Of a DNA stretch of 64,000 bases, positions 6,830-60,304 are shown piece by piece; positions within the stretch are counted from its first letter, which is position 1; each line of letters starts with the position of its first letter. The translations under genes were made by a program, and so were the position numbers. Origin of the DNA: a virus. The notes under the pieces are model-generated. The model searched no databases. It had not been told where the DNA came from and saw only the letters and a program-made list of their open reading frames with translations. The DNA is taken from the IMG/VR virus record IMGVR_UViG_3300026488_000015, positions 82,526-146,525 of that record; one strand, written 5' to 3'.

Positions 6830-7990
6830 TTATAGACCCTCTACGAATTCTTTTGCTTTACCTAAAGAGTTGGTTTGTTTTTCGATGTGCTCTTTAACCA
6901 TTTTACCCGCAGTTTGTTCTACATCACGAAATGATGTGTTAAGTGACTTCATAACACCACCAAATAATGGTTCGTTTCTATATTTTAAAGCGAATTCTTT
7001 TCTGTTTTCATCAAAATCTTGGAAATACTTTCTTCTTAGTTCTTTAAAAGCAACCACTTGATGATTATAATAATGAGAAACTTTTTCTTCCATTTCAATA
7101 ATCATATCTTTTTTAGGACCTTGTACTAATTGAGCTATAACATCATCGATATTACCATCTAAGATAGTCTTCACTAAAAGATTCTCTCTAAATGCATCAG
7201 GACCAACTAAACCGTGTAATTGGATATAGTGGTCTGTTTTGATTTTTGCCATTTGACCATCTTCAAAAGTAACTACCCAACCTTCGATGTTTGCTTGTGA
7301 AGTTTCTTTGAGTCTTAATAAACCATCGAGTGCTAGATTTTCATTTGGGAAGATTTTAAAGTCTTCAGTCACATTAATATTGAAAATATCAGCTAAAGAT
7401 TTCATTTCTAATTTCTCTAAATAACTTCCATCATTTCTTCTAACTTGTAGTAGTGTCAAAGCATTAGCTACTTCATAATTTAGTACAATTTGATTTTCAA
7501 ATCCAACTAATTCAAAGATTGGAGTAAAATCTCTAATATTACATTCAGTAATAAAATGTTGGAATTCTCTGCTAGTATCATAGATATTTTGTGCCATTAC
7601 AGCTTGTTCTGAAATAAATGACATTTTAGATTTAGCTCTAACTTTGCTATTCGGGAACTCAACAAAAGAGATAACTGAACCGTCTTCTTTATTTTGTACA
7701 CGAGCAACTTTCTTACCTTGTAAATCTTCTGGCATCCACCCTAAAGTTTGACCATAATTGAAGAATTTTTGCATTAAAAGATTTCTTTTCCAAGTGCCAT
7801 CTGGTTGTTCAATGAATGTTAAACCTCTAAGTTCAAATGCTTCATCATTTGCGAAATCAGAAATTGATGCAAGGCGATAATCATACATTACTACATTAAC
7901 ACCTTCAACTTCTCGTTCTGCTTTAATAAATGCTTCATTACGAGCAACAATTTCATCACATTCTTGTTTTGTTTTTAAATAAAATTTCAT
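6830..7990 (-). CDS. rnlA: RNA ligase 1 (T4 RnlA-like)
   Basis: ELRGLTF, KFFN, KEDGS (motif I), FEL, EGWVV, KIKT..Y. Confidence 0.9.
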   Translation of the reverse strand: MKFYLKTKQECDEIVARNEAFIKAEREVEGVNVVMYDYRLASISDFANDEAFELRGLTFIEQPDGTWKRNLLMQKFFNYGQTLGWMPEDLQGKKVARVQNKEDGSVISFVEFPNSKVRAKSKMSFISEQAVMAQNIYDTSREFQHFITECNIRDFTPIFELVGFENQIVLNYEVANALTLLQVRRNDGSYLEKLEMKSLADIFNINVTEDFKIFPNENLALDGLLRLKETSQANIEGWVVTFEDGQMAKIKTDHYIQLHGLVGPDAFRENLLVKTILDGNIDDVIAQLVQGPKKDMIIEMEEKVSHYYNHQVVAFKELRRKYFQDFDENRKEFALKYRNEPLFGGVMKSLNTSFRDVEQTAGKMVKEHIEKQTNSLGKAKEFVEGL

Positions 7991-17759: not shown

Positions 17760-18584
17760 ATGGGATTTACAATCAACACAAACAATAGCGCAAACTTCGC
17801 ACTATTATATGGTAGACAAACACAACAAAAAATAGATAGTTCTTTAGAAAAACTATCAACTGGTCTTAGAATTAACAGAGCAGCAGATGATGCAGCAGGA
17901 ATGGCTATTGCTAATCAGTTAAGAAGCCAATCACAAGGTTTAATTCAAGGTAACAAAAATGCACAAGATGCTATTGGTCTTGTTAAAATAGCAGATGGCG
18001 CAATGGATGAGTATCAAAAAATTCTCGTGACTGCTAGAGATAAATCAGTTCAGGCAGCAAGTGATACGAATTCACCTGAAGCAAGAGCAGTACTCGAAGA
18101 GGAAGTTAAGCAATTACTTCAACAAGCAGATGATATTGCCACTACGACATCATTCAATGGTATTAATCTTTTAGATGGTACATTTACTAGCAAGAAATTT
18201 CAAGTAGGTTCAGAATCTGGCCAAACTATTAGTATGAGTATAGCTAATACTGATATTGCTTCTCAAAATATTGCTGACGCTGATATTGATTTAACTACTC
18301 AAGCAGGTGCTGATGCAGCAATCGTTTCATTGGATGCAGCGATAAAAAGTATTGATGCCGTTAGAAGTGGAATAGGTTCGACTCAAAATGCACTAGAAAG
18401 TAGAGTCCGTGTTAATGAGGCAACTGCCGCAAATGTTATGGCCGCAGAGAGCGCGATTCGTGAAGTTGATTATGCTGCAGAACAAACAGCATTAAATACA
18501 AACACAATCAAGTTACAAGCTAATACATTCGCTTTAGGTAAAGCATTAGAGAACCAACAAATGATTCTTAGTCTGCTTAGATAG
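17760..18584 (+). CDS. Flagellin (short, essentially D0/D1 only)
   Basis: MGFTINTN, LEKLSTGLRINRAADDAAG, FNGINLLDG, FQVG, RSGIGSTQN, AESAIREVDYA. Confidence 0.95.
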   Translation: MGFTINTNNSANFALLYGRQTQQKIDSSLEKLSTGLRINRAADDAAGMAIANQLRSQSQGLIQGNKNAQDAIGLVKIADGAMDEYQKILVTARDKSVQAASDTNSPEARAVLEEEVKQLLQQADDIATTTSFNGINLLDGTFTSKKFQVGSESGQTISMSIANTDIASQNIADADIDLTTQAGADAAIVSLDAAIKSIDAVRSGIGSTQNALESRVRVNEATAANVMAAESAIREVDYAAEQTALNTNTIKLQANTFALGKALENQQMILSLLR

Positions 18585-18936
18585 GGTTTAGGAAAACATC
18601 AACTATGATGATAACCAATCCATAATAGTGTAGAGACTCTTCTTTGGTCTCTGCAATATTACCTTTACCAATAAACAATCCAATATCATTTAAAATATCA
18701 AATAGACCTAGACCTTCAGGTTTAGTATAATCAATCATATCAGACATCAAACGAATACTTTCAAGCATCTTAGATGTAGTTTCAAATTTAATTTTTTGTT
18801 GGGATAATGCTGGTTCTTTTTTCTTTTTTTCTGTTTCTATCTTTATAAGTACAAGAGTTTTTTTCTTTAATAAAGTATAAAATGTTTTTAAGAATTCTTC
18901 TTTACCTAAGACAGCATTTTGTTCGTAAGGGTTCAT
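18577..18936 (-). CDS. FliS-like flagellin chaperone homologue
   Basis: MNPYEQNAV start, four-helix pattern K..SK....I..M...ID.....G..L...L...GN, convergent with the flagellin. Confidence 0.5.
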   Translation of the reverse strand: MNPYEQNAVLGKEEFLKTFYTLLKKKTLVLIKIETEKKKKEPALSQQKIKFETTSKMLESIRLMSDMIDYTKPEGLGLFDILNDIGLFIGKGNIAETKEESLHYYGLVIIIVDVFLNPI

Positions 18937-41683: not shown

Positions 41684-42994
41684 CTAATCCTTCAGGTCGA
41701 TAAGGTATCTTTTTTGTCTTGGGTATGATTGTACCTGAGAACCTTCATTCATTTTTGTCGCCGATAACCAGAAGATAGGTGCTTTTGGTAATGCTTTCCA
41801 AGAAGATAGTTCTTCTATATATAAATCTGTAATAAACATAATAGCATTAAACTTCATTCTATTTTCGTGAATATAATCAATACCAGCTTCCATATAAGTA
41901 CCACCACAACCATTTCTCTCGAATGAAAAATCTTTAGCACTAAAATCAGTAACAGCAGAAACTTGCGTATCAACTTGAACAACTTTTAATGTCGTGTTTG
42001 TCATTTCGCAAATATGTCTAATCTCATTGAGAGGTACTAAGATTTCCTCATTTGACATTGAACCTGAAGTATCAACTAAAACGATTAACTCGAAAGTCGT
42101 ATCTTTTGTTTTACCTCTCAAATCCATACGACCAGGCATTCTACGGTCACGACGCTTGATAGTCAATCTCTTATTTGCCTTCTTGTTACCTACAAGTTTT
42201 TTCAACTCTTTTTTCCAGTTCACTTGAGCTTTTCGTTTGAATAAATCCAACATACTAGCGATGTCCCCAGGTAGATTACCTTTCGATTTACTGATAGCAC
42301 TTTCAAGCATATCACTCGTGATACTATCCATAATTTCTTGAGCTTCTTCTGAAATATCTCCCCATTGGTGAACACCGTCTGGTCCATCACCTAGAATAGG
42401 ATTCCCATCAGCATCTAAAGGTTGCCCGTTCTCATCGACATTACCACTCTCTATAGCATCTTTAATAGCTTGAGCGAGTGCTTTCTGTTTCTCTTTCTTC
42501 TCTTCTTTTTGGTCTTGATAATCTTGGTCTTCATCTAATAATCTGTAATACTGTTCGGTATTCAGCTTAGAAGGAAAATTGTAATCTCGGTAATCAACAC
42601 AACCTTTTGGTAAATGAGTCAAGACCTGATTAATGGCCATATCCATAGCTATATTAGCTTGTTCGTGGTCTTCAAAATCTTTTCTTACAGTCAAGTGTCG
42701 ATACATAATATGCAACATTTCGTGCTTGATAACATCGATTCGTTCTCTATCTGATAAATCTTCAAAGAAGAATGGGTTAATCATTAGGTTGTATGCACTG
42801 TTACTAAACGATACACCTGCAGTAGGTAAAGCATTTGACATTCGTACCTTACATTTAGCAATCAAGTGAGCATAAAAGTTATTTCCTGAAACAGTATCAG
42901 TAAACATAGCAACGATACTTTTTTCGAATGCATCACGATTAAATACCTTTACTTCTTTTTCTTCTTTTTCATCTTCTTTTGGTGTCTCGTTCAT
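41684..42994 (-). CDS. HExxH metallopeptidase-like + VWA domain protein (DUF2201-type), MoxR partner
   Basis: HEMLH, NIAMD.AIN, DTSGSMS (MIDAS), GGT, ITD. Confidence 0.85.
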   Translation of the reverse strand: MNETPKEDEKEEKEVKVFNRDAFEKSIVAMFTDTVSGNNFYAHLIAKCKVRMSNALPTAGVSFSNSAYNLMINPFFFEDLSDRERIDVIKHEMLHIMYRHLTVRKDFEDHEQANIAMDMAINQVLTHLPKGCVDYRDYNFPSKLNTEQYYRLLDEDQDYQDQKEEKKEKQKALAQAIKDAIESGNVDENGQPLDADGNPILGDGPDGVHQWGDISEEAQEIMDSITSDMLESAISKSKGNLPGDIASMLDLFKRKAQVNWKKELKKLVGNKKANKRLTIKRRDRRMPGRMDLRGKTKDTTFELIVLVDTSGSMSNEEILVPLNEIRHICEMTNTTLKVVQVDTQVSAVTDFSAKDFSFERNGCGGTYMEAGIDYIHENRMKFNAIMFITDLYIEELSSWKALPKAPIFWLSATKMNEGSQVQSYPRQKRYLIDLKD

Positions 42995-44605: not shown

Positions 44606-45745
44606 TTAAACTAGTTTGATTTTTTTCACTATTCTCGCGAACACTTCTTTTGATGTAGGCTCTTTAACCCAAGTGTTGAAGTTCTTGCTATCAGTTTTCT
44701 TGATGTTCGTGATGAACGCTGTAGCAACTTCGATTGGACAACCATAACATAAGTGATTCAGTAAAGTCCACTTACCTTTCTCTAATGACAATGCATAAAC
44801 TTCCTCAACCAAGTTGTTAATTACTGGCTGTTCTTGGTTGTCTAATAGTTTAGCAATCAAACCGTAAGATGCATCTAAGTTTTGTGCATTCGTGTTAGTT
44901 TTCTTAACCACAGACTTAACTGCTCTAGTAATATCATCAACACCAATCATATCAGAATGATTCTTATAAAAATTTAAGAATTCAGTACCTACAGCACGAC
45001 CTAAACGACCTCTTAAAAGAGTGTAGAGTGCTGGATTATCTTTACCTGAGTTACCTAAATTATCAAGCAATGTTGAAACTTTTGCCCAAGCTCTTGGTGA
45101 TGTACCGTGTGAACTATCTTCAGGTGAGAAGTGAATCATCTTCGGGTTCTTAGCAATGTATTTTAAAATAACATTATTTACACCTGATTTACGGGCCCAA
45201 ATTAGCCATTCTTCGGCATCAGGCTTAATCTCGATTGGTCCAACGAATCTGTCAATAAGTGCATCATCCATTTCATTCGTTTGATAATCACCAGTTGGAT
45301 TACCTGCAGCGATAATCATCGTTTCTACACCGTTATATGTAGGCAATTGATGCTCGTGAATTTGTTTATCGAGAACTAACTGCAATGCTGCTTGTAAAAC
45401 ATCTGATTGAGCACGATTAATTTCATCTAAGAATAAAGAACAAGCTTTACCTGCTTTGTTTGCATCATACATTCTCTTCAACCAAGAAGGCGTTGACCAG
45501 TACATAATTTCTTCTGATTTCGTTTCGTACTTATCTAAAGAAACTTCTTCATTTTTCGTGTTGTACGGGATACCAATAAGGTCTCCAACTTCCATCTGTG
45601 AAAGGAATAATGTTTCATTATGAACACCTGCGTCTAAAGCCCATCTTTCAGCTCTCTGTGATTTACCAATACCGTGTACTCCCTCTATATAAACACAATC
45701 GTTTGACGCTTGACATACATTAAATACTTCTTCTAAGTGATTCAT
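44606..45745 (-). CDS. MoxR-type AAA+ ATPase
   Basis: GVHGIGKS, GDLIGIP, LFLDEINRA, AAGNP, ALIDRF, SPRAW. Confidence 0.88.
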   Translation of the reverse strand: MNHLEEVFNVCQASNDCVYIEGVHGIGKSQRAERWALDAGVHNETLFLSQMEVGDLIGIPYNTKNEEVSLDKYETKSEEIMYWSTPSWLKRMYDANKAGKACSLFLDEINRAQSDVLQAALQLVLDKQIHEHQLPTYNGVETMIIAAGNPTGDYQTNEMDDALIDRFVGPIEIKPDAEEWLIWARKSGVNNVILKYIAKNPKMIHFSPEDSSHGTSPRAWAKVSTLLDNLGNSGKDNPALYTLLRGRLGRAVGTEFLNFYKNHSDMIGVDDITRAVKSVVKKTNTNAQNLDASYGLIAKLLDNQEQPVINNLVEEVYALSLEKGKWTLLNHLCYGCPIEVATAFITNIKKTDSKNFNTWVKEPTSKEVFARIVKKIKLV

Positions 45746-49569: not shown

Positions 49570-50261
49570 ATATTTTCCTTATTGTTTCATTGCTCTTAGA
49601 AATAGAGCATCTTCTGATTTTGTATTCTTCTCTGATTCGTGAGAAATTTTCTTCATTTTGTTCTTATTTAGTTCTCTATCGCTCATTGCCTTCATCGTGT
49701 AGGAATTAACAATATTGATACGATTGCCTACTTTAATAAAACATCTACTTAAATCCATTACCTTAGGCCCACGGAATACAGTAATGACAAAAATTCTGTT
49801 ATTGCCGTCTAAATCCACTAGCACACCAAAAGGTCTTTCTTTATCGCTTTTAAATGTGATTACAGTAGCACCTTTATTTCTAAAAGATGTAAGGCCGTTA
49901 TATAGAGCCTTCGTTAAAATCTGTTTGTATCTCGATTCATCGATATGCTGACCTCTGTGGTATTTCGATGTGCCTTTAGCCATTTCTCTATTTTCAAATA
50001 AGTGCACAGCTGTCTCAACTGTATATACTTTATTATCGAATCGAATATTATCTAATTTATAGCTCATCTTGTACCCCTTCATCTAAAATACCAGAAAGGT
50101 CTACTTTCTCTGGTTCTTTCTTTTCTTGTTCTATTCTAAGTTTTTCTAAGCATTCATCAGTCAAATTCAACTGAATAGTTTCTTCTTTAAAAAAGTTTTC
50201 CATCTTATATCCTTTGTTTCTTTATATGTAATATTATAACATAAAAAGACTTAAAGTTTAC

Positions 50262-50688: not shown

Positions 50689-51135
50689 CTAGTAATCCTT
50701 CAATGCTCTAGCTGTGTCGATATTTTGCTGTTTCTCTTTAAGCGAATTTCGTTTATCGTAATCTCTTTTACCACGACCAACAGCTATCTCAAGCTTAATC
50801 GAATCTGAAGAATCAGGTTGGAAAATCTTCAAAGGGACGATAGTGATACCGTTTTCTTGTGTAGCCACATCGAGCTCTCTGATTTCTTTCTTTGTGAGTA
50901 ATAATTTTCGTGGTCTTACCTCATCGAAATGACCATAAGCAAAATTCTCTGGTTTAGAAATGTGTGCTTGCATTAAGAATGCTTCACCGTTCGAAATCTT
51001 TACATAAGCTTCTTTCAATGATATTCTACTATCACGAATTGCTTTAACCTCAGGTCCTTCTAATACCATCCCAGCAATGTAGTGGTCTGTTAAATGATAA
51101 GAGTGTGTTGCTTTTCTGTTTCTATTGTATTCCAT
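50689..51135 (-). CDS. smpB: SsrA-binding protein SmpB
   Basis: NRKA.H.Y, AGMVLEGPEVKAIR, R.RKLLL.KKEI, G.TIVPL, GKR.YDKR. Confidence 0.93.
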   Translation of the reverse strand: MEYNRNRKATHSYHLTDHYIAGMVLEGPEVKAIRDSRISLKEAYVKISNGEAFLMQAHISKPENFAYGHFDEVRPRKLLLTKKEIRELDVATQENGITIVPLKIFQPDSSDSIKLEIAVGRGKRDYDKRNSLKEKQQNIDTARALKDY

Positions 51136-51637: not shown

Positions 51638-51952
51638 TACGAAACCAATGAATAAGTTTGACCAGCATATCCGTTAGCAGCAGAATTATTAACAGCGTTG
51701 TTAAGATTCTTTACTAATGTTTTAACTGATTTCGGATAACGATTGATTTTTGAATTACCTTCTTCGTGTGAGTAACTAGCACCACATTCTAAAGTGTAAG
51801 AGTAAGCTTGAACTAATTCTTCTAATGTACCAGTTTGCTCATATCTACGGTCTTTGTTGTGATTGTAATTCTCGATTGTGTATATCTTAGCCATTTTAAG
51901 TCCTTTTATTTGTTATATGTAATATTATAACATAAAAGACCTTAAAGCTTTA

Positions 51953-52219
51953 TTAAAGCAGTAAATCAGGTCTATTTTCATAGATTTCTTCGAGGACTAT
52001 AAATCTTTCGGGAATTTTTACTGTCGTAGTTGCATCGTAACCATCAAATTTTGAAGCTTGTATCTCAATACCATTCTTATTGAACCCTAAAATTGTACAC
52101 TTTCTACCGACATTTCCTTTAGCAGAATTCATATAGAAACACCTTTGACCGACCTTTAGCTCTTGACCAAGATAGTCATATAATGGTTCAGGTAAAATCT
52201 CTGTATCTAATTCGTTCAT
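51953..52219 (-). CDS. Small SH3/KOW-like protein with C-terminal tag
   Basis: DYLGQELKVGQ; ends ENRPDLLL. Confidence 0.65.
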   Translation of the reverse strand: MNELDTEILPEPLYDYLGQELKVGQRCFYMNSAKGNVGRKCTILGFNKNGIEIQASKFDGYDATTTVKIPERFIVLEEIYENRPDLLL

Positions 52220-52220
52220 C

Positions 52221-52727
52221 TTATAATCCTAGGTGTGGTTTTTCTGTAATGAGTTTTGTATATCGTTCTGTGTCTATAACCATTGTATCATAATGTTCTT
52301 TTGTTCTCTCTCTAAAAGTCTCTGAATTAGAGAAAGCAAATACGAAAGCCTCTTCTTCTAACACAAAAGAGTTATCATATAATAGCTTAATAGAATATTC
52401 AGCATATTCTTCTTTCTTAGCGGAAAAAGTATATGCTGAATTCCATTGTTTTTCGCTAATATTGTACTCTTCTATCTCAATATGAATATAAGGTCTACCC
52501 CAAACTATATTTTTTACTCTATGTTTTATTACAGATGCATTATAGGCATTATCACTATACAAGTGCACTACATAAAATTCATCATCAGGAACAACTTCAA
52601 ATACACTAAGATGCTGTTTTATTTCTTCTAGTGTTAATGGGATAGAATGCGTAGTAATAAGTATCTCTGGTTCATCAACTGCATCAAGCAGGGCATCTAT
52701 CTCTGATTGAGATAATATACTTGCCAT
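52221..52727 (-). CDS. Protein with FliM-like N-terminal CheY-binding peptide and PHxxL tag
   Basis: Starts MASILSQSEIDALL; ends TEKPHLGL. Confidence 0.7.
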   Translation of the reverse strand: MASILSQSEIDALLDAVDEPEILITTHSIPLTLEEIKQHLSVFEVVPDDEFYVVHLYSDNAYNASVIKHRVKNIVWGRPYIHIEIEEYNISEKQWNSAYTFSAKKEEYAEYSIKLLYDNSFVLEEEAFVFAFSNSETFRERTKEHYDTMVIDTERYTKLITEKPHLGL

Positions 52728-52730
52728 ATA

Positions 52731-53603
52731 TTATCTCTCGAAGTTTTTCAAGATAAGCTTAAGGTATTTGTCTGGCGTTTTTGCTTTCATTTCTTGTGCT
52801 AATTTCTCGATTTGAAACCAAGCTGCACCAGAATCTCTAAGACCTAAAAAGTTTTTGAAGCTTCTAAGATTTATTGTCATAACAGCAGAAACCTTAAAAT
52901 TATCTGAAATGATATATTTGAAGCTATCACCAACATTTCTTTTGTCTTTTGAATTAAGGAGTTTCACAAATGTATGATACTCTGATTCAGCTGGAATTCT
53001 TTCTCTTACTGATTTCGCTACAGAAAGTTCTAACCATTTTGTTTGACCAATTTTGTCATAGTGATATTTCATTTTGTCAAAGATACCGTGTAGTTCAATT
53101 CTATTCATTTTTTCATCTGCAACCACAAACATATCGTATCTAAGAACCTCATCTACGAATGTTTTACTAGGTGCTTGTAATAGAGCACAAGCAGTAAAAG
53201 CATTAATAAGAGAACTCATAGTATATCGTGTCGATTGAACCGAATAACTAGCAATTCTATGCCTAGCTAGTTCTTGTAGAACGCCTCTTGAAAAATCTGT
53301 AAGTAAAAATGTAAGTACTGAATGTTCTAATGTTGATTCGTGAAAATGTACAAATGATAATGATTGAAGCAATTCCGATTCTTCCACTGTCTGAAGACCT
53401 TTAGATAGAGTGCCTATAAGAATTTCATCATTTCTTTTAACGCTATCATTTAATGCCTTGATACAGATATTCTCTGATTTATCAAAGCTATTGTAGCATT
53501 GTCTTGCAGCATATTCGGATTGACCGATTCCATTATCAGCAATTAAGTGTGCTGTTGGGTAGATGTAGTCGATTCCGTTGTAGTCATAAGTTTTTTGTGT
53601 CAT
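52731..53603 (-). CDS. thyX: FAD-dependent thymidylate synthase
   Basis: HESTLEH, ELARHRIASYSVQSTRY, INLRS..NFL.LR. Confidence 0.92.
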   Translation of the reverse strand: MTQKTYDYNGIDYIYPTAHLIADNGIGQSEYAARQCYNSFDKSENICIKALNDSVKRNDEILIGTLSKGLQTVEESELLQSLSFVHFHESTLEHSVLTFLLTDFSRGVLQELARHRIASYSVQSTRYTMSSLINAFTACALLQAPSKTFVDEVLRYDMFVVADEKMNRIELHGIFDKMKYHYDKIGQTKWLELSVAKSVRERIPAESEYHTFVKLLNSKDKRNVGDSFKYIISDNFKVSAVMTINLRSFKNFLGLRDSGAAWFQIEKLAQEMKAKTPDKYLKLILKNFER

Positions 53604-53642: not shown

Positions 53643-54518
53643 TTAAATTTCTGAGGTGTCAAATTCTTGACCTTTTTTGACCAGTCCAGCGAAACCATCT
53701 TCTTGAACCATTTGATTTACTTCATTGTATGTTTTACTTCCTAACATATAATGATACAGATACATTTTTGCTCTTGTATGGCTATCAAGTTCTAATAGTT
53801 GTCTATACTGAGCGTGAACACTATTTGGATACTCAGCGAACTCGCAATCGTGAAATATAATATCACTTTGTTGAAAATATGTAAGCATCTGATTAGGCGC
53901 GAACTGTGAGTCTCCACTAATAAAAACAGTCTTATCATCATCTTCAAACATTAAACCATAGCTAGGTACAATAGAACGATTATCTACAATATGAACTGTT
54001 TGAATGGGTCTGATTTCTGTACCGTAGAACTCAAAAGTATCATTATTACTCATATACTCTGTATCAAAATATGTCTCTAATGTATTTGTTTGACCTTGAA
54101 TAGATTCTAAACCACCTCTCCAAGTTTTGTCCCAACCATTAAATAAGATAGATTTATGAGCATATAGATTAGGTCTCATTGAACCGAATTCAGTCTTACC
54201 GAAATTAAATACTTCAAAATATGTCTTGAAAGCAATATACTCGATACCACCAGCGTGGTCTCCGTGCAGATGTGAAATGTAAATACTATCTAAATCTTGA
54301 GGTTTTAAACCTGCTTCATCAAGAGCATCAGGAATCGTTGTACCTACATCATAAAGAAGATGTTTTGTTTCTATATTTCTTTGAATCATTCCAGGCATAC
54401 CTGCTGGAGTGTCAATCTTTTTTCTTACTTCAGTATCTTTACTAAGTAAAATATTACTCTGATAGTTTTCTTTCCCTAATACGAAAGCACTACCACTTCC
54501 TAAAAATTTAATCTTCAT
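53643..54518 (-). CDS. Metallo-beta-lactamase-fold cyclic nucleotide phosphodiesterase, Apyc1-like
   Basis: LGSGSAF, HLHGDHAGG, W....RGGL, SGDS, FHDC, VHA...LL, YLYHY. Confidence 0.75.
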   Translation of the reverse strand: MKIKFLGSGSAFVLGKENYQSNILLSKDTEVRKKIDTPAGMPGMIQRNIETKHLLYDVGTTIPDALDEAGLKPQDLDSIYISHLHGDHAGGIEYIAFKTYFEVFNFGKTEFGSMRPNLYAHKSILFNGWDKTWRGGLESIQGQTNTLETYFDTEYMSNNDTFEFYGTEIRPIQTVHIVDNRSIVPSYGLMFEDDDKTVFISGDSQFAPNQMLTYFQQSDIIFHDCEFAEYPNSVHAQYRQLLELDSHTRAKMYLYHYMLGSKTYNEVNQMVQEDGFAGLVKKGQEFDTSEI

Positions 54519-55014: not shown

Positions 55015-55451
55015 AAAAAGTAGTTAAAAAACCACCAACATATTTACCATCATCATCAAGTTCGTTACAATCATATAACATATCGATAAAATAATTTAAT
55101 AAGTATTCAGAAAGTTCTGTGTTCTCATCAGTTCTAAATTGGTGTTTTAATCCAACTGTACCATCATCATTGTAAAGTAACTCGACTCTTACATCGTGGT
55201 CTTCACCGATTACAAACGGATAATCGAAAATAGATACTGGATTCTCACCTGATACCCATAACGGGTGTTCAAACTCTTTATGATATAATGAAAATAAATC
55301 TGCACCATCTTCGATAAGTACTTGAAAGTTTTCTTCGTTCTCTGTGTTTACTGCGTTTTTTAGTTGATTACTCATTGTGAGTCCTTTGTTTGTTTATATG
55401 TAATATTATAACATACAAGACCTTAAAGGACACTTAAATACTAGAAAGAAC

Positions 55452-56030
55452 TTAAATTCTTTCTAAAATCACTCTCTCAGCAGATAAATCTCTTACCTCT
55501 GCATCAGATAATGAGAATTTCTCAGGATAACGAATCTTTAGTTTGTTCAAATTAATAGTCCAAACTTTTTCTTTTGTAATGTCGAGTTCTTCTTCAAGAC
55601 TACGAACGAAATAACATAATGAAGCATAAAATCTTGTAACTTGGTCAGCAAGAACATCTTTATCGTATTCTTTACCATAAAACATTGTTTTCTTGCACTT
55701 ATCTAGCATATCAGCAGATTGTGAGATTAGCGTTTTTGGTATACTAGAACAACCAATCTCTAAATCAGACTGAAGGTCGATTCTATCGATACCTAATTCA
55801 TCTAATAATACACCGGTGTACCAAAAAGCATCACCGATTTCTTCAGCAACATTTACAAAATCAATATGACTTCTTTCGTATGCCTCTGAAATCTCACCCA
55901 TTTCTGTTGAGATACCTACAATACCGTGTAACATTCTATTGGTTAAACCAAGAGCTACCGTACTCTCTGATAATGGTGCTTTACTCGATTCAGTTCTTTT
56001 ACATCCGTCTATATATTCTTTTAAATCCAT
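55452..56030 (-). CDS. MazG-like NTP pyrophosphohydrolase
   Basis: GISTEMGE, EEIGDAFWY, N.NKLK.RYPEKF. Confidence 0.8.
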   Translation of the reverse strand: MDLKEYIDGCKRTESSKAPLSESTVALGLTNRMLHGIVGISTEMGEISEAYERSHIDFVNVAEEIGDAFWYTGVLLDELGIDRIDLQSDLEIGCSSIPKTLISQSADMLDKCKKTMFYGKEYDKDVLADQVTRFYASLCYFVRSLEEELDITKEKVWTINLNKLKIRYPEKFSLSDAEVRDLSAERVILERI

Positions 56031-56745: not shown

Positions 56746-59106
56746 CTAAGAACAGCTTTCACACGCGTATTCTTCGGCTCCATCTTTTTGTTGCTTCAAA
56801 TAATAGTAAGTTCGTAAGCCTAAGAAGAACCCATATAAGTGAATTCTCGACATTTCATTAAGTGAATCAGGTCGTTTAATATAAACATTAACTGACTGCG
56901 ATTGGTCTAACCACTTTTGTCTTACTGCCGCATTTTCGATTAACTTGTACATATTACATTCGAAGGCTGGCTTATACCACTGATTGTTCAATCTAAAGTT
57001 GCTAACTAAAGTAGGAATAGTCATTGTGCCCTCTTCCTTGTAGAAGAACTCATTTATAGGTTCAGTTGATTCAGTTGCATTGATAGCTTTACCTGAAGTT
57101 GCTGTAGGCGCAATTGCCATTAACTGTGCATTTCTAATACCATTGATAGATATTTCTTGACCTAGTTTATCCCATCTGTCCATATTTACTTCGTACTTCG
57201 TAAGCTTAGTAGCTTCTTTGTTAGCTTTATGAATAGGTAAGATACCTTTTGACCAATCAGTCTCATAGAATTTCTCGAAACGACCTTTCTCTTTAGCTAG
57301 TTCCATTGATACTGTTGTAATCATAAAGGCTAAATCATCAAATAATTCATCTGTTTTCTCTAACGCTTCTTGCGTATCAATAACGATTTTGTTAAGAGCC
57401 AAATAGTTAGCAAAGTTAAGTACTCCAATACCTAAATATCTGTACATCATATTAGAGTTTTTACCCTCTTTAACTGGATAGTTAGCTTCATCGACCGTAT
57501 TATCAAGAGCTCTTACAAGCGTTCTAATTAACTGCCATTTTTCCTCTTCATCCATATAAAACCATTTTTCAAGATTTACTGAAGAAAGGTTACATAAAGC
57601 AATTTCTCCTGCTGTATATCTCTTAACGATTCTCTTCTCGCCATCTTCCATTGTTACTAGTTCCTCGTTGATAAGCTCACTAGGACGACTTGGTAACAAG
57701 ATTTCAGTACATAGATTACTTGAACCTATATAACGGTTTAGCTGTGTGTTTTCATTAACATTTTCTTCGTGAAATAAGTAAATATTTCCCGTTTCAGAAC
57801 GCTCTTTCATAACCTTAGCCCATAAAGTCCGAGCTTTCACTTTCTTCTTTCTGATACTAGATTTTTGTGAGTACTCTTCATAAATAGCATCAAATTCATC
57901 TCCATACACACCAATTAATTTAGGTGTATCTTTCGGGTCGAATAAGAATATCTCACCATCTTCAATAATCTTGTTAATGAAAAGTCTATTAAGCTTAATA
58001 GCATATTGTAAACCTCTAGCACGATTCTCATCTGTACCACCATTAGATTTAAGTGATAGCATATCATCGACATCTAAATGCCACCAAGAGAAATATACAG
58101 CTAATGCACCTGGTCGTTTACCACCTTGATTCCAAGCTTTCATAATCGATTCATAGAATTTCATAAATGGAACTGGTCCTGATGAATATCCTTGTGTACC
58201 CTCAATATATGAACCTTTAGCTCTCATTGAAGAAGCATCTAGTGCTGTTCCACCCTTGTACTTTGAGTAAATACCTAAGTTTTTACCAGTGTCTAGGATG
58301 TTGTGTGAGTCATCGCTTAGTGTATTTAATACACAACTAGATAACTGTTGTCCCGGTGTTAAAGCGTTAAGGATAATAGGTGTAGCTACTGTGTATTCGT
58401 GCTTCGATATAGCATCGTACTCTTCGATAACTTTTGCTACTCTGTCTTCTTCATTAATCATAAGAGCCATTGCAACTCTCATATAAGATATTTGAGGAAG
58501 TTCAAGTTTCTTAGTCTTTGTGTAATTTAAACAATATTTGTCGAAAAATGTTACTAGACCTTTATAGTTAAAAATTAAATCTCTCTCAGGTTTAAGAGCA
58601 TCATTAAGTGCTATGATTTCATCTACTGTGTATTTCATTACAGAAACTTTATCATAAATCTTGTTTTCAACACCTTTATCCATAATATCTAAAAGAGAAG
58701 GATATTCTTTATGATTACTAATGTTATAAGTTTCTTTATAGTAAGACAATAATTGTAGTTTTGCTGCAACCATTTCCCAAGCTGGGTTTAACATACTAAT
58801 CTTATTAACAGCAGTAACGATTAACTGTTGGTACATATCTTGAATCTTAATCTTTTTATGAAGTTTAATTTCAGTATCTCTAAGAAGTTCTTCTTTCATA
58901 AATTCATTAGGACAAGCCCACTCTAAAACTTTATCAAGCTTCTTAGGCTTAAATGGTTCTTCGTGACCTTTTCTTTTAATAATGATAATCTTATTAGCTT
59001 TCATTGCATCTTGATTACTAATTTCAATGCTCTCTTTATTTTGGACAGCATTGTTAAGGCCTGCTAGTGAGACCTTATTGTATCTTTTTTGTTTGTTTTT
59101 ACTCAT
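56746..59106 (-). CDS. nrdA: Ribonucleotide reductase class Ia alpha subunit
   Basis: ATP-cone, ATPI, SSC, SNLCTEI, CNL, APTATS, terminal CESCS. Confidence 0.95.
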   Translation of the reverse strand: MSKNKQKRYNKVSLAGLNNAVQNKESIEISNQDAMKANKIIIIKRKGHEEPFKPKKLDKVLEWACPNEFMKEELLRDTEIKLHKKIKIQDMYQQLIVTAVNKISMLNPAWEMVAAKLQLLSYYKETYNISNHKEYPSLLDIMDKGVENKIYDKVSVMKYTVDEIIALNDALKPERDLIFNYKGLVTFFDKYCLNYTKTKKLELPQISYMRVAMALMINEEDRVAKVIEEYDAISKHEYTVATPIILNALTPGQQLSSCVLNTLSDDSHNILDTGKNLGIYSKYKGGTALDASSMRAKGSYIEGTQGYSSGPVPFMKFYESIMKAWNQGGKRPGALAVYFSWWHLDVDDMLSLKSNGGTDENRARGLQYAIKLNRLFINKIIEDGEIFLFDPKDTPKLIGVYGDEFDAIYEEYSQKSSIRKKKVKARTLWAKVMKERSETGNIYLFHEENVNENTQLNRYIGSSNLCTEILLPSRPSELINEELVTMEDGEKRIVKRYTAGEIALCNLSSVNLEKWFYMDEEEKWQLIRTLVRALDNTVDEANYPVKEGKNSNMMYRYLGIGVLNFANYLALNKIVIDTQEALEKTDELFDDLAFMITTVSMELAKEKGRFEKFYETDWSKGILPIHKANKEATKLTKYEVNMDRWDKLGQEISINGIRNAQLMAIAPTATSGKAINATESTEPINEFFYKEEGTMTIPTLVSNFRLNNQWYKPAFECNMYKLIENAAVRQKWLDQSQSVNVYIKRPDSLNEMSRIHLYGFFLGLRTYYYLKQQKDGAEEYACESCS

Positions 59107-60304
59107 TTGAGCTCCTTACATCTTCATCGATTAATTGCTTAACTTCGATATTAATATCATTGATACTTTCTCGATAGAATTTCTTGAAAATTTCTTTTCT
59201 ATCTTCTGGAATAAACGAGAAATCATCTGACATATCATCTTGCATAATACCGATTGAATATGCAGTTCCTTCAGCTTCTTGTTGTGCTGTGTTGTCTTTG
59301 TTAATATCTTTGTAAGACTCAAACCATTGTACAACATCTGTTTTTTCTTGCCCGAATGCCTTCTCGACACCGATTGATGCTAATCTATCATCAACATAGT
59401 ATTTCATAAACTGCTCAACAACCGGCTCAGTAAGAGTAGGAATATCTCCAAAACTTAATAAGTATCTAGTAAATTCCATTTCATCTTTAAGCACATCTGT
59501 GAATACTTTTGTAGCCATTTCAGTAAACCAATCAGATTTAATAAGGTCCGAGAACCCTTCATCTGTACTTCTTCTAAGAATCTGAATAGTACCCGAAATC
59601 ATCGAGGTATGTAAATCTTCATCAAAGTTGATAAGTTTAATGATTCTAGCAGCGCCTTGAATTTTGTTGTTATAAGAGTTGTTAATAATATAAGTAACCA
59701 AAAATGATACTTGAAACTTAATTCCCTCTAAAGCAAGAATACTAACTAATAGCTCTAAGATTAATTTTTTCTTCTCTGTTTCATCTGTGATGCTATCAAT
59801 ATTCTTTACACGAGCATAAAGTTTGATTTCTTTATCTACACGCTTTTGAATCTCAGGATAGTCACCAATCTTATCAAAGATTACGCTTGAATCAGCAAAT
59901 ATCCCTCTAAGAATATGAGAATAGCTAAGTGAGTGTATTAACTCGAAATAACCTTGAGTCTTGAACATAGCTTCAAATTCTGGGTTCGTACATAGAGAAG
60001 CAAGTACTTCCTCTAAACCACTGTTTTGTGCTGAGTCCATTAATGTCTGAAACAACCATATCCTAATCATCACTTCTTGAATAAATTCAGGTAGCTCAAA
60101 GAATTTGATGGCATCACTAGTCATCGAAATTTCTTTGGGATTCCAAAACGCATTTCTTTGTTTTTCTTCCATTGTAACAGCAAATTTATAAGTTGGATTG
60201 TCGTATCGTTGAAAACCTGAATATTCACCGAAGAATATTTTTTCTTTCTGTTTTTCAGGTACTAGGTTTGTAGTACATAAAATTGTTTTGCAAGAACTGC
60301 CCAT
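59099..60304 (-). CDS. nrdB: Ribonucleotide reductase class Ia beta subunit
   Basis: FW.P.E, DSAQ, ELIHSLSY, LEGIKF, DEDLH. Confidence 0.93.
   Translation of the reverse strand: MGSSCKTILCTTNLVPEKQKEKIFFGEYSGFQRYDNPTYKFAVTMEEKQRNAFWNPKEISMTSDAIKFFELPEFIQEVMIRIWLFQTLMDSAQNSGLEEVLASLCTNPEFEAMFKTQGYFELIHSLSYSHILRGIFADSSVIFDKIGDYPEIQKRVDKEIKLYARVKNIDSITDETEKKKLILELLVSILALEGIKFQVSFLVTYIINNSYNNKIQGAARIIKLINFDEDLHTSMISGTIQILRRSTDEGFSDLIKSDWFTEMATKVFTDVLKDEMEFTRYLLSFGDIPTLTEPVVEQFMKYYVDDRLASIGVEKAFGQEKTDVVQWFESYKDINKDNTAQQEAEGTAYSIGIMQDDMSDDFSFIPEDRKEIFKKFYRESINDINIEVKQLIDEDVRSSNE

Follow-up and report, generated by a model that had tools for sequence, protein, structure and literature searches.

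A FliM-type CheY-docking peptide at the N-terminus of an orphan phage protein, a candidate decoy for phosphorylated CheY

FliM, a protein of the C-ring, is bound by CheY at its N-terminal EIDAL motif (PMC6946799), and in FliY proteins a docking peptide of this kind precedes further domains. Described phage factors that act on flagella or signalling take other routes: phage control of flagellin transcription has been reported for TldR and phage flagellin (bioRxiv 10.1101/2025.07.22.666180), PIT4 of Pseudomonas phage LSL4 targets sensor kinases and regulators (PMC10714779), and FlaGrab/Gp047 of phage NCTC 12673 targets flagellar glycans (PMC7099621), and none of these acts through a copy of the FliM peptide. 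Here, we analysed a 64,000-nucleotide stretch of DNA (the window), corresponding to positions 82526–146525 of the IMG/VR virus record IMGVR_UViG_3300026488_000015 (146.5 kb, 33% GC, 68% complete by CheckV), in which a minus-strand open reading frame (ORF) begins with a copy of the N-terminal peptide of FliM (FliM-N). We refer to this gene as the mimic ORF, and the parts of it that carry the resemblance are as follows.

52221..52727, minus: mimic ORF, 168 residues plus stop (stop codon 52221–52223), encoding an orphan protein
52671..52727, minus: residues 1–19, MASILSQSEIDALLDAVDE, copy of a Campylobacteria-type FliM N-terminus
52686..52718, minus: residues 4–14, ILSQSEIDALL, core 'EIDAL' docking motif with the conserved columns kept

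A Campylobacteria-type FliM N-terminus on a non-FliM protein

The protein encoded by the mimic ORF starts MASILSQSEIDALLDAVDEPE and ends TEKPHLGL. To characterise its N-terminus, we used FliM genes from 33 Campylobacteria genomes as a reference set, with the N-terminal consensus MADILSQEEIDALLEVVDE. A 20-position hidden Markov model (HMM) of the 33 N-termini matched the mimic ORF with 35.9 bits (E 1.6e-10 among 637 phage ORFs), while the second-best ORF reached an E-value of 0.6. The FliM of a Campylobacterales metagenome-assembled genome (MAG; G002), which starts MADILSQDEIDALLDAVDDDD, is identical to the phage peptide at 16 of 19 positions, and the peptide shares the lineage-specific LLDAVD extension with Campylobacterales FliM; gammaproteobacterial FliMs (LLSQDEIDALLHGVDD, LLSQAEIDALLNGVSD) match the profile less well. 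All columns that are invariant across 19 FliMs and three other phage proteins are retained (L5, S6, Q7, E9, I10, D11, L13 and L14), as are I4 and A12 of the FliM motif, and residues 4–15 of Salmonella FliM (SILSQAEIDALL) are identical to the phage segment (SILSQSEIDALL) at 11 of 12 positions, the sole difference falling at a variable position.

This resemblance is specific to FliM. Searched against 177,635 distinct PDB sequences, the profile of N-termini matched FliM only (8umd_C, E 3.5e-5), the matches including Salmonella-type FliM and 4iga_B, the FliM peptide of the CheY complex. At the DNA level, a pattern for ILSQxEIDALL was found as a single copy in 129 of 151 Campylobacteria genomes and as two copies in none, with zero control matches, and it occurs once in the whole 146.5-kb phage record. 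This single occurrence per genome makes the peptide a single-copy FliM signature in the likely host group. An earlier note, made from the sequence alone, had identified the N-terminus as the docking peptide of FliM for phosphorylated CheY (CheY-P), and the HMM match, the identity to Campylobacterales FliM and the single-copy signature all bear this out.

The conserved residues and the N-terminal, helix-prone placement that define EIDAL as a short linear motif were both found in the phage protein, a helix at residues 7–15/16 being predicted at low confidence in both of two AlphaFold2 (AF2) runs. The first 60 nucleotides of the mimic ORF are identical to sampled host fliM genes at 40–46 of 60 positions, with differences at synonymous sites. 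A recent copy of the 5′ end of a host fliM was rejected on this level of identity, which is measured against sampled genes that may not be those of the true host.

As the earlier note also held, the remainder of the ORF is not FliM-like. BLASTP against a 364-residue FliM aligned residues 1–14 only, the CheC-like middle domain of FliM (PF02154) was not detected, and no Pfam domain was found anywhere in the protein at E≤10, nor did Pfam give a match to the SpoA/FliN-type domain (PF01052) or to a CheC-like phosphatase domain, whose motif [DS]xxxExxN...P we likewise did not see when inspecting the sequence.

Recurrence of the peptide on unrelated viral proteins

Matches of the mimic ORF to PHROGs are limited to its N-terminus, with phrog_8774 covering residues 1–43 (E 0.0029) and phrog_31201 covering residues 1–15. 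Homology over the whole phrog_8774 profile (~125 residues), which gives true members E-values of 1e-57 to 1e-70, was not found for the mimic ORF. A tblastn search with residues 1–45 against 50,697 phage records returned Campylobacter phages only. The proteins CP21_042 (YP_007005112.1), CP220 gp071 (YP_009169205.1), WX1_0109 and CP39 AVR55669.1 are 121–128 residues long and start MA[QMI]ILSQEEIDALL, and the phrog_8774 peptide is present in all sampled Campylobacter phages, spanning the CP220, CP21 and NCTC 12673 types.

Comparing the orthologues of CP21 (Firehammervirus) and an NCTC 12673-type phage (Fletchervirus), both assigned to phrog_8774, we found that residues 1–15 are identical at 13 of 15 positions (87%), as against 35 of 106 (33%) in the rest of the protein, indicating selection on the peptide. 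Recurrence under such strong differential conservation makes a function for the peptide likely. In CPt10 (L039:1501-1638, 1640-1888) and in a CP81-type phage (L107, 132.7 kb), the phrog_8774 gene falls into two pieces or ends early, after 33–45 residues, and the remnant is a mini-ORF that consists of hardly more than the FliM peptide (phrog_31201) and could be either a minimal decoy or a decaying gene.

We also scanned 2.9 million IMG/VR contigs for the ILSQxEIDALL pattern and obtained 10 loci, nine of them at the N-terminus of an ORF. Seven lie in Eucampyvirinae genomes, two on contigs of 51% GC, and one is an internal match within a lysozyme-like ORF (L100), which we discarded as a chance occurrence. 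The N-terminal loci fall into two families beyond the mimic ORF, with unrelated bodies. The second of these is formed by the two 51% GC contigs (L102 and L105, one of them classed as a provirus), which encode a Cys-rich protein of 152 residues starting MRDILSQDEIDALLNG. On L102, the larger of the two contigs, a truncated FliM comes immediately after this protein.

L102:4460-4918, plus: Cys-rich protein; L102 is IMG/VR 3300028327_000833 (record G071), 152.6 kb, 51% GC, classed as a provirus
L102:4965-5840, plus: ORF of 291 residues starting MSNVLSQEEVTALLN, a truncated, divergent FliM (PF02154 with 47.9 bits, above threshold; no FliN domain)

A Clp_N-domain protein is encoded on the same contig (L102:818-2038, plus), 2.5 kb upstream of the Cys-rich protein. 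Judged by these sequences, at least three viral proteins that are unrelated to one another carry the peptide at their very N-terminus. A full-text search of the published literature found no paper on a phage mimic of FliM-N or EIDAL, and the genome papers on CP220/CPt10 and CP21 do not mention chemotaxis or flagella; phage early genes are thus a setting in which we did not find this docking motif described.

A candidate CheY-P decoy and its alternatives

Overall, we lean slightly towards a reading in which the peptide would function as a docking site for CheY-P and the protein would serve in the cytoplasm as a decoy or tether, so that CheY-P is uncoupled from the C-ring, and the recurrence of the peptide on other phage proteins makes such a decoy more credible. 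Under this reading, an accessory early gene of a large Campylobacterota phage would encode a functional FliM-N mimic in its 14–19 N-terminal residues. Translated from the ATG at 52725–52727 and residing in the cytoplasm, the mimic would bind the phosphorylated CheY of the host at the alpha4-beta5-alpha5 surface to which FliM-N normally docks, titrating CheY-P from the C-ring and probably also from its phosphatase, so that motor switching would become uncoupled from chemoreceptor input. The phage might benefit through blocked superinfection or adsorption by flagellum-dependent phages, or through a fixed swimming behaviour of the infected cell. We infer these steps, namely the translation start, CheY-P binding, the effect on switching and the phage benefit, from the features described above. 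The lineage of the candidate host has a CheY1 orthologue (L076:1477-1848:-), which matches H. pylori CheY1 (3GWG) at E 1e-62. A receiver domain of the phage itself was also considered as the target of the peptide and rejected, with no match to PF00072 in the 146.5-kb record.

The setting of the gene is that of a compact transcription unit on the minus strand, which carries nearly all genes of the phage record.

52731..53603, minus: thyX (Pfam Thy1, 100.6 bits), directly upstream of the mimic ORF in a common transcription unit
51953..52219, minus: downstream gene of 88 residues (phrog_2251) with the tail RPDLLL, closing the unit
55404..55416, minus: closest copy of the phage promoter motif on the upstream side (GTATGTTATAATA, extended −10), where the unit likely starts

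The promoter-like motif TTATGTTATAATA (extended −10) has 31 minus-strand copies in the window, where 0.89 were expected, and the copies at 55404–55416 and 51923–51935 flank a unit of six genes: two small ORFs, a metallo-β-lactamase (MBL)-fold hydrolase, thyX, the mimic ORF and the 88-residue gene. The unit has the appearance of an early or middle one, of the type read by host RNA polymerase. The start codon of the mimic ORF lies 3 nucleotides past the thyX stop codon, and none of the four other in-frame starts (GTG54, TTG56, GTG122 and ATG149) has a Shine-Dalgarno sequence.

Several points weigh against a CheY-P decoy. First, the protein is an orphan: searches of 5.8 billion proteins (word index) and of 1.84 billion representatives (phmmer) returned only the protein itself, a homologue search with residues 1–40 was empty, and tblastn and blastn of the mimic ORF against the same phage records as above gave no whole-protein match. 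Second, the linker between the peptide and predicted structure is ~7 residues long, compared to ~30 disordered residues in FliM. Third, the Shine-Dalgarno sequence upstream of the ATG is weak (GAGAGA); a recognisable one is missing in 40 of the 156 long ORFs of this phage. Fourth, the split and truncated genes of CPt10 and L107 show that Campylobacter phages can lose the body or even the entire gene. Fifth, FliM-N has a modest affinity for CheY-P, so that a decoy must be abundant to compete.

The gene is also missing in the nearest relative. An orthologue of the 88-residue gene, 80% identical, is found on an 810-bp ENA contig (L115, ERZ23498834), where thyX is followed after 3 nucleotides by this orthologue and the mimic ORF is lacking, leaving a gap of ~510 nucleotides that corresponds exactly to the ORF. 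Compared to positions 51913–52949 of the window, the DNA is 79–81% identical on both flanks of the gap, and the gene after the promoter downstream differs between the two as well. The mimic ORF is hence accessory and dispensable, a further point against the decoy; the comparison agrees with an accessory gene that was gained recently or is lost easily, and marks the locus downstream of thyX as a hotspot of gene turnover. Finally, the N-terminal peptide of FliM has also been reported to bind FlhG (PMC12826062). The earlier note had proposed a CheY-P decoy from the same peptide; its proposal retains the specific, lineage-matched FliM peptide, the non-FliM body and now the recurrence in its favour, but it had overlooked FlhG as a second published partner.

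Among the alternatives, we weighed a tether with an effector or adaptor function, raised in the earlier note as a bait joined to a common tail, in which the peptide would recruit CheY-P and the body would dephosphorylate or modify it, or the tail would link the complex to a common hub, for example a protease. The following parts of the protein bear on this possibility.

52437..52670, minus: residues 20–97, unique middle region with predicted beta-strands, relatives not detected
52224..52436, minus: residues 98–168, C-terminal module common to one paralogue (E 1.8e-5 by phmmer among the ORFs of the phage, and alignment)
52224..52238, minus: pentapeptide PHLGL, a degenerate copy of the P-H-L-Phi-L tail of this phage (end-motif comparison)
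52227..52230, minus: AGGA, Shine-Dalgarno sequence of the downstream gene, inside the Leu-Gly-Leu codons (CTA GGA TTA TAA G ATG)

From its sequence, the protein is thus built of the FliM-N peptide (residues 1–19), a unique region (20–97) and a common C-terminal module (98–168) ending in the tail. The paralogue (G000:5880-6293, minus; L002:1501-1914:-) is without the FliM peptide, and both proteins contain EEEAFV and TE[RK]Y..I.EKPHL[GA]L within the module. AF2 models reached a pLDDT (predicted local distance difference test) of 34 from the single sequence and 38 with the paralogue, too poor for a fold search, while the ESM Atlas gave no usable feature match and structure neighbours that all had template modelling (TM) scores below 0.5.

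The tail itself is a recurrent feature of the phage. P[HD]Lx[LVIF] ends 14 minus-strand ORFs of the window, and a Pro at −5 with a hydrophobic end is found in 27 minus-strand ORFs of the whole record. PHLxL followed by TAA has 10 copies in this phage, as compared with none in CP220, an NCTC 12673-type phage and the 51% GC provirus (G071). The tail codons vary synonymously (CCA/CCT/CCG, CAC/CAT, TTA/CTA, TTT/TTC), indicating that the tail is conserved or selected as a peptide and not as DNA; a nucleotide-level signal (promoter or terminator) was rejected on the same ground and because the promoter motif lies farther downstream. The mimic ORF shares with the tail set Pro at −5, His or Asp at −4, Leu at −3 and Leu, Ile or Val at −1, but at −2, where the other copies have F, L, I, V or M, it has Gly and its paralogue Ala. 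The PHLGL end to which the earlier note had drawn attention is therefore present, but it is the most degenerate copy of the tail, and the overlap with the Shine-Dalgarno sequence of the next gene may explain the Gly. Among the tail-bearing small genes lie a DUF2201 putative metallopeptidase/von Willebrand factor A (VWA) protein (41684–42994, minus) and an AAA_5 (MoxR-like) ATPase (44606–45745, minus).

We consider a tether with an effector or adaptor unlikely. FliY has such a peptide-plus-effector architecture (PMC12826062), residues 98–168 form a module common to a paralogue, and the tail, found on at least 14 ORFs of the window with synonymous codons, is selected as a peptide. On the other side, the body has no match to CheC, CheX, CheZ or another family and no visible phosphatase motif, no protease or hub partner for the tail was identified, the tail of the mimic ORF is the weakest of the set with its Gly at −2 overlapping the Shine-Dalgarno sequence of the next gene, and the other two peptide-bearing phage families lack a PHLxL-type tail.

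The second alternative concerns the identity of the partner. The peptide might titrate the MinD-like ATPase FlhG, altering flagellation or cell division rather than chemotaxis, for which we see a rather small chance. FlhG binds the N-terminus of FliM or FliY in other species, although its binding of specific proteins in amphitrichous species is uncertain (PMC12826062), and FlhG was not seen to interact stably with a C-ring protein in C. jejuni (PMC6946799), where FlhG controls how many flagella are made and prevents cell division at the poles. A further link to flagellar assembly is provided by a flagellin gene of the phage.

17760..18584, plus: phage flagellin, 274 residues (Pfam Flagellin_N 144 bits, Flagellin_C 54 bits)

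The best tblastn identities of this flagellin are 51–52% to MAGs of Campylobacterales/Sulfurimonadaceae, as compared with 36–47% to Shewanella, Arthrobacter and others. Taken together, the affinity of the flagellin and the Campylobacteria-type FliM peptide point to a flagellated Campylobacterota host, probably an environmental one. Campylobacter phages of the CP220 type require host motility for infection (PMC4293142), so that at least one mimic-carrying phage group is flagellum-dependent. A search of IMG/VR for related phages by thyX found none. Beside the flagellin gene, we examined a convergent ORF of 119 residues (18577–18936, minus) as a possible FliS-like protein and found no support for this, with no Pfam FliS signal by hmmscan or in a genome search.

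A third alternative, which we judge improbable, is that the N-terminus is a leftover, without a role for the peptide, of a recombination by which a fast-turnover ORF acquired the 5′ end of fliM, or that translation starts elsewhere. The gene is an orphan that is missing in the nearest relative, where neighbouring genes differ too, its Shine-Dalgarno sequence is weak, and some Campylobacter phages carry the analogous gene in split or truncated form, all of which would suit a relic; however, the peptide is intact at all conserved positions with synonymous differences from the sampled host genes, it is far better conserved than the body in Eucampyvirinae (87% versus 33%) and stands on three unrelated bodies, and the internal starts are all without a Shine-Dalgarno sequence. 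That the peptide is a localisation tag, by which CheY-P or its pole of synthesis would bring the protein to the pole that bears the flagella or to the chemoreceptor array while the body acts on something else, is very improbable: the peptide is the sole interpretable part and the bodies vary between phage families like different cargos, but CheY-P is diffusible and hence a poor positional landmark.

On a broader view, which we regard as a long shot, FliM-peptide mimicry would be a general, repeatedly invented phage route to the behavioural signal of the host, and the P-H-L-Phi-L ends of more than 20 early proteins would plug bound targets into one hub, for example a protease, with the mimic delivering CheY-P for degradation.

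Returning to the CheY-P decoy, the peptide-bearing viruses probably interfere with the steering of infected cells, since cultured Campylobacter phages bear the peptide on an unrelated protein as well. Provided that the peptide does bind CheY-P, we would have here a direct example of a phage that seizes the steering signal of its host through a copied docking peptide, a type of mimicry that is well known in viruses of eukaryotes and scarcely documented in phages. Cultured Campylobacter phages (CP220, CP21 and NCTC 12673/CP81 types) bear the peptide unnoticed on a conserved 'hypothetical protein', which makes the hypothesis open to immediate testing with phages, strains and CheY assays that already exist. 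Such phages are under study for biocontrol, and some are motility-dependent (PMC4293142). The mimicry could account for links between infection, motility and superinfection in Campylobacter.

Some further observations concern the phage and the unit in which the mimic ORF lies. The MBL-fold hydrolase of the unit (53643–54518, minus) scores above the Pfam threshold for Anti-Pycsar Apyc1 (PF23023, 82.3 bits, cut-off 50) and is likely an anti-defence cyclic-nucleotide phosphodiesterase. The promoter-like motif is often preceded by CTTTAAGGT, has a further copy at, for example, 50232–50244, and is conserved in the related fragment L115 too. Elsewhere in the window, the phage encodes SmpB (50689–51135, minus; Pfam 160 bits, phrog_6791), a MazG-like pyrophosphohydrolase (55452–56030, minus), the large and small subunits of a class I ribonucleotide reductase (56746–60304, minus) and a T4-type RNA ligase (6830–7990, minus); ARAGORN found no transfer-messenger RNA (tmRNA) or tRNA in the window. 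The identical mimic protein is present on an independent 925-bp Logan contig and is also recorded on a contig of 331,651 bp, so that the phage may extend beyond the 146.5-kb record and be of jumbo size.

Comparison with known systems

By its sequence, the mimic protein is neither a FliM, a FliY nor a member of phrog_8774, and is best described as a new protein that carries an already known docking motif. It agrees at every conserved position with FliM-N, as seen in complex with T. maritima CheY (PDB 4IGA) and in the C-ring (8UMD), and like FliM-N it carries the peptide at the extreme N-terminus, with a Met three residues before ILSQ and the Campylobacteria-type extension LL[DE][AV]VD[DE]. It differs from FliM as a whole in that it lacks PF02154 and the SpoA/FliN domains and has a short linker; as a soluble protein of 168 residues, it cannot join the C-ring.

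The closest architectural parallel is FliY of the Bacillus/Thermotoga type, in which a CheY-binding peptide is followed by a CheC-like phosphatase and a FliN domain (PMC12826062). The mimic protein likewise places a docking peptide before another domain, but CheC and FliN domains are not detectable in it. Of the phage systems, the setting of TldR has in common with the present phage that the latter also encodes a flagellin. The proteins of the G071 provirus have a FliM-type N-terminal peptide like that of the mimic, but differ in host group (51% GC) and in their bodies. Similarly, the phrog_8774 proteins of Eucampyvirinae, including the NCTC 12673/CP81-type orthologues, are small Campylobacterota-phage proteins with the peptide at the N-terminus; unlike the mimic, they have an unrelated body without the PHLxL tail and are encoded near baseplate genes, where they are annotated as hypothetical.

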